Shown here piece by piece: positions 14,595 to 41,595 of a stretch of 41,940 nt of DNA. Location: NCBI GenBank assembly GCA_903831095.1, contig CAIKWD010000029.1, forward strand, positions 1 to 41,940. Direction: 5' to 3'. This DNA is from Candidatus Staskawiczbacteria bacterium. GTDB taxonomy: Bacteria; Patescibacteriota; Minisyncoccia; Minisyncoccales; Staskawiczbacteraceae. The notes beneath the pieces are model-generated. The model did not search any database, was not told where the DNA came from, and worked only from the letters and a program-made list of their open reading frames with translations. The position numbers were made by a program, and so were the translations under genes. The number at the start of each line of letters is the position of its first letter. Positions within the stretch are counted from its first letter, which is position 1.

Positions 14595-15869
14595 CTATTT
14601 GAGTAAATCTTTCTTTCTTAACTTTTTGTGGTAGGCAATGGCAAAGCGGTGAGCTTCATCATCTAATTGTAAAATTAAGCTGTAAATTTCCCGGGGCAGA
14701 GACTTTAACGGTATAAAATTATTTCGTCCTTCTATATATAGGTCTTTATTGCGCTTAGCTAAAGAAAATATTTTTATTACTTTAGATTTTAAATTTCCAT
14801 CCTTTGTTTTTATGGCAATATTAAGTTGAGCAATGCCTCCATCTATCAGCATAATTTCTGGGTATGACCATTCTGGGTGTAACAGTCTTCTACTAATGGT
14901 TTCTTCCAACATGGCTATGTCATTTGGTTTTCCCTCTATTTTAATGTGAAATTTGCGGTACAAATTTTTGTCTGGTTTGCCATTTATAAAAACAACCATT
15001 GATCCTGTGGCTGATTTCCCTTGTATATTGGAAACATCATAACATTCAATTCGTGATATTTTTTTATCTAATCCAGCTAAACCCCGCAGTATTTTGTTGG
15101 TCTTTTCCCAGTTGTCATTATCTCCCATATTAGATGGCTCAATTACTCCTGAATGCGACATAACTTGTTGCAAGTTTGAGATTCGGTCGCGTATAATTAC
15201 CGCTTCTTCAAATTTTTTCTCTGCAGAAAGAGCTTTCATTTCTTTTCTAAGCAAATTCAACACTGCTTTGCTCTTTCCCTTAAGTATCAAAATAAGTTTC
15301 TTGATATTTTTTTTATATTCTTTCAAATCTGGGTTTGGTCCAGGGCAAAGTCCAAGGTGGCAATAAGTGCATTTGTTTTTTGAATGTTTGCGCACGCTGT
15401 AGTAGGGGAATACTCTTCTTAAATATCTGAGTGTCATTTTTAAGGCGTTTCCTTCTACAAAAGGGCCAATATATTCTGCGTTTTCCGTTTTTTGATGGGT
15501 TATATAAACAAATGGAGCTTCGCTTTTGGAAACTGCTACATAAAAATAATTTTTGTCGTCTCGCCAAACCACATTAAACCTTGGCTGGTATTTTTTTATA
15601 AGGTTTGCTTCAGTAATCAGCGCTTCTATTTCTGAGTTGGTTTCAAAATATCCAATTTCGCCAACTTTATCTATGTATAAGTAGTCGCGGTAGCTTGGCT
15701 GATTGAAGTGGTTTTTAACCCGGCTTTGGATGTTTATGGCCTTTCCTATATATATGCACTCTGAATTTTTAATTTTTAATTTTAAATTTTTAGTAAAAAA
15801 AGCATATACCCCAGCTTTTTTGGGGAGATTATTTATTTCAGATTTTGGAAGTATCTTAAACCTATCCAT
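14595..15869 (-). CDS. uvrC: Excinuclease UvrC-like, short form lacking the C-terminal HhH domain
   Basis: LPKKAGVY...IYIGKA..I.SRV..HF, EALI.EA.LIK, FEEA...RD, RIECYDVSNIQG, LIDGG..QL, DEAHRFA. Confidence 0.93.
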   Translation of the reverse strand: MDRFKILPKSEINNLPKKAGVYAFFTKNLKLKIKNSECIYIGKAINIQSRVKNHFNQPSYRDYLYIDKVGEIGYFETNSEIEALITEANLIKKYQPRFNVVWRDDKNYFYVAVSKSEAPFVYITHQKTENAEYIGPFVEGNALKMTLRYLRRVFPYYSVRKHSKNKCTYCHLGLCPGPNPDLKEYKKNIKKLILILKGKSKAVLNLLRKEMKALSAEKKFEEAVIIRDRISNLQQVMSHSGVIEPSNMGDNDNWEKTNKILRGLAGLDKKISRIECYDVSNIQGKSATGSMVVFINGKPDKNLYRKFHIKIEGKPNDIAMLEETISRRLLHPEWSYPEIMLIDGGIAQLNIAIKTKDGNLKSKVIKIFSLAKRNKDLYIEGRNNFIPLKSLPREIYSLILQLDDEAHRFAIAYHKKLRKKDLLK

Positions 15870-37645: not shown

Positions 37646-37921
37646 TTATTTTGTTACGTATAAATTACAAAAGCAGTGCCCATCTTTTTTAACTTCGTCT
37701 AAGTGCCAGAAGCATGGGCAAATTTTCTTGGCATCTTCAGCTTTGTCTCCGGAAACTCTTCTGCATGGGCAGTATTTTTCTCCATGTTTTTCCTCATTCC
37801 TGAAAAGGCCGTCGGCTATTCTGTTTACCACTTTTTCGTCAGGGTTTAGCTTAATTCCAGCGCTTTCTGCATGTGCTAAAAACTCCTTTTTTAATTCGTC
37901 TATTTTAATTTGGTCTGCCAT
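37646..37921 (-). CDS. Ferredoxin:thioredoxin reductase catalytic-subunit-like protein
   Basis: YCPCR...ICPC...GHCFCNLY (CPC/CPC/CxC). Confidence 0.9.
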   Translation of the reverse strand: MADQIKIDELKKEFLAHAESAGIKLNPDEKVVNRIADGLFRNEEKHGEKYCPCRRVSGDKAEDAKKICPCFWHLDEVKKDGHCFCNLYVTK

Positions 37922-37922
37922 A

Positions 37923-38270
37923 TTATTCTTTAATGGCGTTTTCCAGCCATTCTTTAATTGAATTTTCCGGAACCAATCCTACAAATCCGTTTATTTGTTT
38001 TCCATTTTTCAATAAGGCAATGCAGGGGATTTTATCTACATTAAATTTTTGCGAGGCAATTGGAGCTTCGTCAACATTAACTTTTGCCAAAACAACTTTG
38101 TCCTTAAACTGCTCAGTTACTTTTTCCAAAATTGGGCCCAAAGTATTGCACGGCCCGCACCATGTTGCAAAAAAATCTACCAAGACAAATTTGTCTGCCT
38201 CGCCCGTAGGGCTACGGCCGAGGGTGGCTACTTCTTTCTCAAAATTTGCGTCTGTTAGATGAAGCGTCAT
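37923..38270 (-). CDS. trxA: Thioredoxin with a 9-codon palindromic insertion
   Basis: VLVDFFATWCGPC, AKVNVDE; extra residues in ATLGRSPTGEAD. Confidence 0.95.
   Translation of the reverse strand: MTLHLTDANFEKEVATLGRSPTGEADKFVLVDFFATWCGPCNTLGPILEKVTEQFKDKVVLAKVNVDEAPIASQKFNVDKIPCIALLKNGKQINGFVGLVPENSIKEWLENAIKE
38198..38224. mobile_element. 27-bp palindromic element inserted in-frame in trxA
   Basis: CCTCGCCCGTAGGGCTACGGCCGAGGG; related copies at 39682-39733. Confidence 0.8.
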
Positions 38271-39674: not shown

Positions 39675-39759
39675 AAAAAACCCCTTGGCCGTAGCCCTCG
39701 GTCGTAACCTACGGGTGAGACCAACGGGCGAGGCGCCTCGGTAGGGAAGCGGTTTTTTT
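39675..39759. repeat. typA terminator region with two nested copies of the 27-bp element
   Basis: aaaaaaC-CCCTTGGCCGTAG-[CCCTCGGTCGTAACCTACGGGTGAGA]-CCAACGGGCGAGG...GGttttttt. Confidence 0.75.
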
Positions 39760-39765
39760 ATTATA

Positions 39766-41595
39766 TTAGTAGTCAAATTTTATTCCTTCGGCGGCACGCT
39801 CAGCTCTTTTGGCGTCTACTTCTTTCAAGTGTACTTTTCTTATGCGTACATTTTTTGGAGTAATTTCCACAAGTTCGTCGTCGCCAATGTATTCCAAAGC
39901 ATCTTCAAGCTCCATTGTTTTTGGAACTCTAAAATAATCCAAGCTGGCGTCTCCAACAGATCTGCAGTTTGAAAGCGCTTTTTCCTTGCAGACATTTATT
40001 CTTAAGTCGCTTGATCTGGCGTTTTGCCCTACAACTTGGCCCTCGTAAACTTCTACAGCTGGTCCAAAAAACAAAGTTCCTCTGCCTTGCAAGTTAACAA
40101 GTCCGTAAAGGTTGGTTGGCCCAGTACTAATTGAAACCAAAGAACCATGATCTCTTTCTTTCCAATTTCCTGGGTCTGGCATGTACTGGAAAAACACTGT
40201 GTTCATTATGCCAAGGCCTTTTGTGTCTGTTAGAAATTCATTTCTATATCCAAATAATCCCATGGTAGGAATAATAAATTCCAAGAATGCTGTGCCGTTG
40301 TTACTTCTCATTTCTTTTATTTCTCCTTTTCTTCCGCCCATTTTTTCCATGACAACTCCCTGATATTTTTCCGGAACCTCAATGAATATTTTTTCATAAG
40401 GAACCATTCGTTTTCCATCTATTTCTCTGACAATAACCTGTGGGCGTGAAACCTGGAATTCAAAGCCTTCTCTGCGCATTCTTTCAATTAAAATTGCCAA
40501 GTGCAATTCACCTCTGCCCGAAACTGTCCAATTGTTTTTGTCGTCTTCTACAACTCGCAAAGAAACATCAGTTTCCAATTCTTTAAAAAGTCTTTGTCTT
40601 ATTTGTCTTGTTGTTGAAAATTCTCCTTCCTTTCCGGCAAATGGGGAAGTGTTAACCATGAAAGTCATTTTGACTGTTGGTTCATCTATATTTATAAGTG
40701 GCAAGGCTTCTGGGTTTTCTAGGTCGGCAATTGTTTCTCCAATTGTTACGTCTTCTATACCTGCAATTGCAACAATGTCTCCGGCGTGAGATTCTGTTGC
40801 TTCAACTTTTCCAAGTCCTGAAAAAGTCATCAAAGAAGTTATTCTGCATTTTTTCTGTACGCCTGCTCTGTTTATGTGTGTTATGTCTTGGCCATTTTTA
40901 ATAACTCCGTTGTAAATTCTGCCAATAGCAATTCTGCCTTTAAAGTCGTCTGGGGCAATTGTGGTTACCAACATTTGTAAAGGTTTTTCTGCATCAGCAA
41001 TAGGGGAGGGTATATGTTGTATAATAGCGTCAAAAACTGGGTTAATGTCTGTCATTTTTGACAAGTCTGCTTCCAATCCAGCTTTTCCTTCGCGGCCCGA
41101 AGCGTAAATAACTGGAAAATCCAAACTGTGGTCTCCAGCGCCCAATTCCAAAAACAATTCCATTGTGGCCTCTAAAGCAAATTCACATCTGGCACCTGGC
41201 TTATCTATTTTGTTTACAACCACAATAATCTTGTGGCCCATTTCCAAAGCTTTTTTCAAGACAAATCTGGTTTGTGGCATTGGCCCTTCTTTAGCGTCAA
41301 TTAAAAGCAAACATCCGTCTGCCATATTTAAAACTCTTTCAACTTCTCCGCCAAAGTCAGCATGACCTGGTGTGTCAATTATGTTTATTTTTGTCTCGCC
41401 ATACATGACCGAGGCATTTTTTGAGAAGATAGTAATGCCTCTTTCTCTTTCAAGTTCATTACTGTCCATGATCATTTCCTGGGCTGCAACTTCTTTCTTC
41501 ATTTCTGTTTTACTCTGCCTCAAAAGCGCGTCCACCAGAGTGGTTTTGCCATGGTCAACGTGAGCGATTATTGCAATATTTCTAATTTTGTTCAT
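39766..41595 (-). CDS. typA: Translational GTPase TypA/BipA
   Basis: IRNIAIIAHVDHGKTTLVD, DTPGHADFGGEVER, GRGELHL.ILIE.MRREG, DDELVEITP. Confidence 0.98.
   Translation of the reverse strand: MNKIRNIAIIAHVDHGKTTLVDALLRQSKTEMKKEVAAQEMIMDSNELERERGITIFSKNASVMYGETKINIIDTPGHADFGGEVERVLNMADGCLLLIDAKEGPMPQTRFVLKKALEMGHKIIVVVNKIDKPGARCEFALEATMELFLELGAGDHSLDFPVIYASGREGKAGLEADLSKMTDINPVFDAIIQHIPSPIADAEKPLQMLVTTIAPDDFKGRIAIGRIYNGVIKNGQDITHINRAGVQKKCRITSLMTFSGLGKVEATESHAGDIVAIAGIEDVTIGETIADLENPEALPLINIDEPTVKMTFMVNTSPFAGKEGEFSTTRQIRQRLFKELETDVSLRVVEDDKNNWTVSGRGELHLAILIERMRREGFEFQVSRPQVIVREIDGKRMVPYEKIFIEVPEKYQGVVMEKMGGRKGEIKEMRSNNGTAFLEFIIPTMGLFGYRNEFLTDTKGLGIMNTVFFQYMPDPGNWKERDHGSLVSISTGPTNLYGLVNLQGRGTLFFGPAVEVYEGQVVGQNARSSDLRINVCKEKALSNCRSVGDASLDYFRVPKTMELEDALEYIGDDELVEITPKNVRIRKVHLKEVDAKRAERAAEGIKFDY

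Follow-up and report, generated by a model that had tools for sequence, protein, structure and literature searches.

The stretch of DNA analysed here, referred to throughout as the window, is the 41,940 nucleotides of contig CAIKWD010000029.1 (positions 1 to 41,940, forward strand) from assembly GCA_903831095.1, a Candidatus Staskawiczbacteria genome. Below, G000 is this genome (806 kb in 31 contigs, 35.3% G+C, 97% complete), C-numbers are its contigs, other G-numbers are related genomes, and L-numbers are the loci compared. On the minus strand of the window, at 37923..38270, lies an open reading frame (ORF) of 115 amino acids with a Pfam match to thioredoxin (Trx; PF00085, E 5.3e-27, residues 2-110), and within it, at window 38198-38224, is a palindromic element of 27 nt that reads CCTCGCCCGTAGGGCTACGGCCGAGGG. 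The element stands in frame and encodes LGRSPTGEA, residues 17-25 of the predicted protein, in which the WCGPC active site is intact, as it is without variation across the alignment described below. A first-pass annotation made from the sequence alone had proposed an in-frame palindrome inserted in this thioredoxin, and the sequence, the predicted fold, the ORF and the Pfam match all agree with that description. The element folds as an imperfect palindrome of two 5-bp stems with a 1x1 mismatch between them (C.C on the plus strand, G.G on the mRNA strand) and a 4-nt loop, with predicted energies of -17.3 kcal/mol for the mRNA and -12.0 kcal/mol for the coding strand as single-stranded DNA. It is GC-rich (21/27, or 78%, versus the genome-wide 35.3%), and no match to it at three or fewer mismatches appeared in any of 100 dinucleotide-preserving shuffles of the window.

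Comparison with related thioredoxins indicated that the element is an addition. Orthologues were present in 22 of the 24 same-genus genomes searched, and 19 were aligned; the insert was absent from 18 of these 19, as in EEEL--------GATDKF versus EKEVATLGRSPTGEADKF. The remaining orthologue (L005) has a different, 4-residue insert in the same place, and its DNA holds an 8-bp palindrome, CCCATGGG. Removal of the element had been expected to restore near-normal thioredoxin spacing, which it does, the net gain over the relatives being 8 codons and not 9, and the alignment showed no orthologues that keep the peptide while the palindrome has decayed. Contigs from other sequencing runs were also compared across the window; these come from the same study and are not independent samples. 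One of them (X3, record 7) crosses the element with 0 differences, and two diverged contigs (90-95% alike) depart from the window at 38197, with loose ends that translate to a thioredoxin N-terminus, ...ENFDKEVSST/DK..., from which the element is absent. An AlphaFold model built from 16 sequences (mean predicted local distance difference test score, 88.5; predicted template modelling score, 0.81) keeps the thioredoxin-like order of strands and helices with the fold elements intact, and places the insert in a coil (residues 18-27) between helix 1 (10-17) and strand 2 (28-34), in what is the lowest-confidence block of the model. The predicted coil supports the surface-loop position that had been suggested for the peptide, and from general knowledge of the thioredoxin fold we take this loop to be distant from the CxxC site.

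The same DNA recurs in genes that have nothing to do with thioredoxin. A whole-genome scan found the identical 27-mer (27/27) in the TsaD gene and a copy differing at 1 base in LigA, and matches to the arms of the palindrome numbered 83 in the genome, versus 18-31 in five shuffles. Besides thioredoxin itself (C29, LGRSPTGEA), seven G000 genes hold copies in frame: TsaD (C24, PLGRSPTGEA), LigA (C30, ALGRSPMGEA), a DHH-like protein of 264 aa (C26, with two copies, one of them 3 nt shorter), a TraG-like protein of 767 aa (C21, a compound copy), the C-terminal tail of ribosomal protein S16 (C11, two copies with 36-nt cores), an HI0933-like flavoprotein (C11, in reverse orientation, GSPVGLRPR) and MnmA (C9, in a third frame, LARGRSTAEG). 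The inserts in TsaD, MnmA, the flavoprotein and LigA, and the second DHH copy, are absent in five of five congeners (G003, G002, G024, G012 and G005), and the S16 tail insert is absent in all four congener tails that could be aligned. Identical DNA in unrelated genes whose orthologues are empty identifies the source as a dispersed DNA element rather than a conserved peptide. The idea that a mobile palindrome made new protein sequence is well founded on this evidence, with the peptide itself presumed from the reading frame.

Copies also occur in non-coding DNA, at C9:3648-3686, C7:12081-12105 and window ~39682-39734, with a half-site at C8:11170. The one in the window (39682..39734) is found past the typA stop codon and short of the next gene, with an A-run and a T-run bordering it, in the 3' flank of a 609-aa GTPase ORF (39766..41595, minus strand) that by eye we take to be TypA/BipA. 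The first-pass annotation had counted two copies about 1.5 kb from thioredoxin; they are indeed non-coding and of the same family, but they form one nested compound copy, in which a complete inner copy occupies the loop between outer arms and the whole folds at -33 to -35 kcal/mol. An element nested within an element is itself a trace of insertion. The compound copy aligns to variants with 51-nt cores at L093, L142 and L074, and one of the variants with this core length, near-identical to it (LGRSPSVVTLRVRPTGE), is carried in frame by a radical-SAM gene in a different genome. The hairpin at C7 lies within what appears to be a 3' fragment of tRNA-Leu (C7:12040-12125; ...GGGTTCTACTCC, hairpin, CGCCTCGGGCACCA), as judged against the intact tRNA-Leu on C26; ARAGORN called no tRNA or tmRNA at this fragment, and C7:11400-12500 gave no Rfam match.

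The boundaries of the element could be read from copies with distinct flanks. CC precedes the 24-nt core in 52 of 52 such copies, and after the core the first base is G in 51 of 52 and the second is C in 52 of 52, with no conservation further out. These sharp CC...GC edges define a conserved unit of 28 nt, at 38197..38224 of the window (minus strand; coding strand CC + CTCGGCCGTAGCCCTACGGGCGAG + GC), read as (T)LGRSPTGEA; the sequence and place of the palindrome as originally marked stand, and its 27-bp extent falls one nucleotide short of the unit conserved across copies. The flavoprotein and TsaD copies, where the event is cleanly readable, each amount to a net gain of 27 nt, and in a tRNA fragment described below the native ...CATC-TAATGG... 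has become ...CATC-CCTCGG...CGAGGC-TAATGG.... From the net length and this junction, the element appears to enter beside a C, with an overlap or duplication of 1 nt at most.

The family is sparsely but widely distributed. A degenerate pattern, CTCGSCCRTRG-N(1-30)-CTAYGGSCGAG, matched 5 of 26 genus genomes (G000 with 8 forward matches, the other four with 1 each) and, at the level of the order, 18 of 301 genomes belonging to 16 of the 199 genera, and the reversed control pattern had 0 matches in either scan. Among 185,579 genomes, one per species, the exact-arm pattern found 87 stretches, nearly all labelled as Patescibacteria and a few otherwise; the groups represented include Staskawicz-, Giovannoni-, Nomura-, Uhr-, Kaiser-, Adler-, Moran-, Nealson- and Brennerbacteria as well as Paceibacterota. 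The exact 24-mer core was found in 45 metagenome stretches, some of which are the same contigs as the species-genome stretches. The pattern scan of viral contigs gave 0 stretches, and phage as the vector was rejected on that result.

Length and reading frame proved to be restricted in genes. For the statistics on core length 86 copies from 80 loci were used. Stop-free frames of 200 codons or more contain 25 of the 86, and in 23 of these 25 the core length is divisible by three (18 have the 24-nt core), compared with 10 of the 61 copies outside long ORFs; cores of 36-38 nt, when not divisible by three, occur outside genes. A canonical set was compiled by pooling G000, genome contigs and metagenome contigs and removing copies with the same flanks, which left 51. 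Genes contain 47 of these (thioredoxin, and 46 in open frames that run to 140 codons or more), and the four stop-free frames of the element are all used, LGRSPTGE 34 times (33 plus thioredoxin), ASPVGLRPR 6 times, PSAVALRAR 4 times and LARRATAE 3 times, and none of the 47 is read in either stop-containing frame. The host ORFs are recognisable genes: 25 of the 26 submitted matched a Pfam family, and the matched hosts include MurB, UvrA (two), UvrC, UvrD (two), LigA, IF-2, EF-Ts, GatA, KsgA, ClpB, Rpe and RuvX. An insert that was spliced out or bypassed could have any length and frame, and since both are constrained translation is favoured; on these statistics we regard it as very probable that the insert is translated.

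Taken together, the comparisons demonstrate insertion, empty sites, dispersed near-identical copies, 28-nt edges, an adjacent C, nesting and, within genes, copies confined to open frames and to lengths that are multiples of three. We consider it likely, with a probability of roughly 85%, that the thioredoxin palindrome belongs to a mobile family of Patescibacteria, short, GC-rich and non-autonomous, whose copy here is translated as a tolerated extra loop. By this account the element would have inserted in trx after this lineage split from the sampled congeners, at a point that falls in the helix 1-strand 2 loop. Since the addition is of complete codons (9 from the element itself, a net 8) in a stop-free frame, the insertion would have made LGRSPTGEA, a peptide that could be translated and tolerated as an extra surface loop of presumably neutral effect. 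Selection would filter such insertions to surface loops, and to frames that give peptides rich in Gly, Pro, Ser and Thr.

Three other explanations were weighed. One is that the insert is cut out of the mRNA, or that ribosomes pass over it, so that the protein made is a normal thioredoxin. A GC-rich hairpin of 27 nt in an AT-rich genome does resemble the bypass elements of yeast mitochondria, but removal or bypass would leave unexplained why 23 of 25 long-ORF copies are divisible by three when 10 of 61 elsewhere are, why all 47 genic canonical copies are in stop-free frames, and why the variants not divisible by three sit outside genes. No family in Rfam accounts for the hairpin either. A search of 12 hairpin loci against Rfam at E<=1 returned tRNA, rRNA and weak chance matches only, with no family at the tRNA-fragment hairpin loci, and a scan of the window at the gathering threshold returned two tRNAs only and nothing at the thioredoxin copy. 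We therefore judge removal or bypass to be very improbable. Less probable again, to the point of being negligible, is that there was no insertion and that the loop is protein sequence of ancestral or convergent origin, or else an artefact of assembly; the bare presence of the peptide is all that speaks for this, and it is contradicted by the 18 of 19 congeners that lack the insert, by identical DNA in unrelated genes, by the occurrence of the element in assemblies from many projects and by the contig from another run that spans it without differences.

The third explanation is that the hairpin is a DNA or RNA signal selected by the host, such as a binding site, a translational pause, an mRNA-stability hairpin or an uptake-type signal, and that the peptide is a by-product. 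We think this improbable, while giving it more weight than the other two. The 28-mer is invariant across very divergent classes, one combination of orientation and frame is strongly preferred (34 of 47), and the predicted mRNA hairpin is stable, at the energy given above. The UvrA genes of two other genomes (L095 and L124) are a case in point: the element stands at one and the same codon in both and is 27/27 identical, with 71% amino acid identity between the proteins and 68-70% nucleotide identity in the codons flanking the element. A host signal would not be expected to be confined to 18 of 301 genomes in the order and 5 of 26 in the genus, where it is mostly single-copy, nor to occur in host genes and at positions that are mutually unrelated; moreover, the closest relatives lack the element at every site tested, and nested and tandem copies resemble insertion events.

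Some of these observations also weigh against the reading we prefer, of a mobile family translated as a tolerated loop. One old neutral insertion in UvrA should have drifted, so the identity there calls for another explanation, and as far as the sequences can tell the pattern fits site-specific re-insertion, homogenisation or nucleotide-level selection better. In thioredoxin, the net gain of 8 codons makes the exact insertion event appear ambiguous, and the ORFs on which the frame counts depend were called mechanically, stop to stop, without a gene finder.

A possible means of movement was suggested by the longer copies, which are associated with a small gene. Copies with cores of 36-38 nt mostly share the flanks ATTGCGGGGTCGTCC...GCTAATGGTAGGAC, and in G000 these belong to a cassette at C9:3636-4022 (L161) in which the flanks duplicate the opening ~26 nt of tRNA-Gln(CTG) and the D-loop position is taken by a hairpin with a 37-nt core. 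The order along C9 is the hairpin-bearing tRNA fragment, 14 nt, an 81-aa ORF (C9:3700-3945) with a GIY-YIG domain (C9:3700-3912, PF01541, E 2.4e-17; no NCBIfam family matched) and then the intact tRNA-Gln. The locus is empty in, for example, G004, G041, G006 and G021, where the upstream gene directly abuts tRNA-Gln, and filled in G012, G005 and G003, and in G010 there is a remnant with the hairpin kept and the ORF gone. The arrangement is not peculiar to this locus. GCTAA, which marks the tRNA-fragment context, follows 31 of the 86 copies, and in 17 of these 31 a GIY-YIG-like ORF starts within 52 nt downstream, 15 of the 17 ORFs being of one subfamily (...YIGCT...ERYYKTAKGK...). When 300 genomes of the order were searched with the nuclease, each of its five closest homologues (55-67% identity) proved to have a hairpin next to it; these five come from 5 of the 17 genomes that were hairpin-positive. 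The window has a GIY-YIG domain match of its own at 15579-15815 (minus strand, E 1.2e-7), within a 432-codon open frame; this is probably UvrC and not a small cassette nuclease.

We propose, tentatively and at something short of even odds, that the hairpin family is the cis element of small cassettes in which the hairpin is combined with a duplicated tRNA 5' fragment and a GIY-YIG gene of ~80 aa. The cassette nuclease would act on its cognate hairpin, or make breaks into which the hairpin is copied, seeding solo copies beside a C, of which only those in permissive loops and open frames would then survive selection. Several points stand against the nuclease as the mover. We know of no means by which such a nuclease alone would insert a 27-nt hairpin, and the cassette of G012 is without the D-loop hairpin. 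In twelve of the 17 hairpin-positive order genomes, among them G153, which carries the element in UvrA, this query returned no near homologue of the nuclease (the best was <=53% identical), so that the idea of a nuclease wherever solo copies occur is unsupported with this query; the cassette evidently carries the hairpin, but solo copies persist without the cassette. The tRNA pseudo-fragment could also be a neutral, tolerated landing site from which the hairpin then hitch-hikes with the cassette. It is about equally likely that the hairpins are independent micro-elements moved by another enzyme, the tRNA pseudo-fragment being a neutral landing pad that travels with the cassette; on this view the spread between lineages would be explained as well.

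The first family is not the only one of its kind in G000. A second consists of a double hairpin, GTCCCGC-N4-GCGGGA-TCCCGC-N4-GCGGGAC, at C26:167541-167785, C11:58341, C11:76980, C18:31925, C26:47899 and C26:66367. One of its copies is set into another tRNA 5' fragment at the D-loop position, and an ORF of a different GIY-YIG subfamily (C26:167588) lies directly downstream of it; solo copies stand in frame in five ORFs of 249-833 codons, including a second site in the HI0933-like flavoprotein, at which three of five congeners have nothing and two of five have other GC-rich inserts. A third palindrome, CCTGCCTGCCGGCAGGCAGG, and its variants are likewise found in frame in genes, in G000 at C26:132034-132051 and C2:5157-5174. 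It lies in a 491-codon G000 frame, by eye presumably a CCA-adding-enzyme-like gene, exactly where a metagenome orthologue (L182) carries LGRSPTGEA, and in MnmA of G003 (L051) at the position that the first family occupies in MnmA of G000. Different families thus stand at the same codon position of orthologues in the CCA-adding-enzyme-like gene, MnmA, the flavoprotein (L056, G002) and thioredoxin (L005). Going by their positions in these genes, the loops that are hit repeatedly would be either hot spots or the sole permissive sites.

With at least two pairs of hairpin and GIY-YIG subfamily in G000, a broader proposal can be formulated, which we regard as speculative and, on balance, unlikely: that Patescibacteria carry an undescribed mobile system of tRNA-targeting cassettes, each ~80-aa GIY-YIG subfamily paired with its own GC-rich hairpin and seeding solo copies of 27-33 nt beside a C, repeatedly at the same loops across lineages. 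If this were true, it would mean that bacteria with minimal genomes have a constant source of new surface loops for their essential proteins.

Whatever moves them, the insertions have uses and consequences. The genes affected include such strongly constrained ones as those for IF-2, EF-Ts, UvrA, LigA, TsaD and thioredoxin, and the insertions are in effect a natural map of the loops that tolerate insertion. The element is also a marker of recent events, because its sequence stays the same while the flanks have diverged. Gene calls and alignments of Patescibacteria will contain 9-residue inserts, which should be recognised as element-derived.

Some other features of the locus and the genome were observed in passing. 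Directly downstream of trx, at 37646..37921 on the minus strand, is a gene like that for the catalytic chain of ferredoxin-thioredoxin reductase (FTR; PF02943, E 2.8e-22); the two are separate, adjacent genes in G000, and in the congeners L015, L016, L017 and L019 they are Trx-FTR fusions of 193-204 aa. Cumulative GC skew in the window is positive to ~34 kb and negative beyond, and from ~35.5 kb onward, the region in which ORFs were listed, the long ORFs are on the minus strand; the switch could be a replication landmark or a mere effect of gene strand. Elsewhere in the genome, GC-rich tandem repeats with a 24-nt unit, mutually reverse-complementary, reach the contig ends at C24:1-152 and C31:1-116, and these two contigs may join there.

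A literature search, with subscription journals and outside supplements beyond its scope, turned up no description of such elements in Patescibacteria and no published LGRSPTGE, SPVGLRPR or related strings, and on GIY-YIG enzymes with tRNA-gene hairpins or palindromes it found only organellar and phage work. Several known systems nevertheless invite comparison. Fungal mitochondria harbour GC clusters, double-hairpin elements and bypass elements, short GC-rich hairpins of tens of nucleotides that invade the coding regions of AT-rich, reduced genomes. Short GC-rich hairpins in the coding regions of an AT-rich, reduced genome are also what we describe here, but in contrast to bypass elements, which disrupt the reading frame or contain stop codons and are passed over in translation, the host is bacterial and the genic copies are in open frame with lengths divisible by three in 23 of 25, which indicates read-through. 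MITEs (miniature transposable elements with inverted repeats) offer a second comparison. Such elements have inverted repeats at their termini together with a target-site duplication, and they descend from a complete insertion sequence that has matching ends and a transposase gene. In our element inverted arms are present, and the 28-nt unit set against a net insertion of 27 nt (flavoprotein, TsaD) leaves at most 1 nt, a C, of overlap or duplication. No kb-scale element bounded by the arms was found among the arm matches of G000, PF01797 being the only transposase family searched. As for longer relatives, those of the element are GIY-YIG cassettes and not insertion sequences.

The likeness to repetitive extragenic palindromic sequences (REPs) is closer in form. 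As described in the account consulted (PMC3733652), these too are imperfect GC-rich palindromes of 20-40 bp, dispersed, with a GTAG tetranucleotide and a mismatch asymmetry that gives polarity. They are there extragenic, with the GTAG/CGTC tag at one end; in our element 47 of 51 canonical copies are within genes, GTAG and CTAC adjoin the loop, and the ends are CCCTCG...CGAGGC (compare PMC3733652). Mobilisation of the kind attributed to REP-associated tyrosine transposases (RAYTs) was rejected, the Y1 transposase family PF01797 having no match at E<=0.1 in the 97%-complete G000 in a search whose control matched 7 of 14 reference genomes.

For the cassette, the nearest parallel is SegB of phage T4, reported in the source we consulted as a free-standing GIY-YIG homing endonuclease in a tRNA gene cluster (PMC2330249). 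As with genes of the SegB type, so far as that source describes them, a small GIY-YIG ORF lies beside tRNA genes and is present or absent at a conserved site among relatives. The cassette of the predicted nuclease differs from the SegB gene as there portrayed in that ~26 nt from the tRNA-Gln 5' end are present in it a second time, with a conserved hairpin inside the duplicated piece. To our knowledge, Seg enzymes have no link to dispersed solo hairpins.

The closest precedent for the coding insertions is the Rickettsia palindromic elements (RPEs; Ogata et al., 2000, 2002), which the review available to us characterises as units of ~150 bp, in frame in unrelated genes, with a conserved peptide of tens of residues (PMC10969869). 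By that characterisation RPEs and our element share much, both being palindromic repeats of a reduced, AT-rich genome, in frame in unrelated metabolic and housekeeping genes, and RPEs too are translated with the host protein and have no transposase of their own. The element here is far smaller (27-28 nt and 9 residues, the longest variants having 51-nt cores, against ~150 bp), is GC-rich, occurs in many classes of Patescibacteria, has sharp CC...GC edges and has longer relatives in tRNA-fragment/GIY-YIG cassettes, a separation that is drawn from the published description of RPEs and not from a comparison of sequences. Coding palindromes had previously been described as a peculiarity of Rickettsia, and a much shorter element appears to do likewise across a radiation with minimal genomes. 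The link between tRNA fragments and GIY-YIG genes provides a concrete, testable candidate for how micro-elements move, a question open even for RPEs, and there is a real chance that this link could make the present family more than an RPE-like variant.

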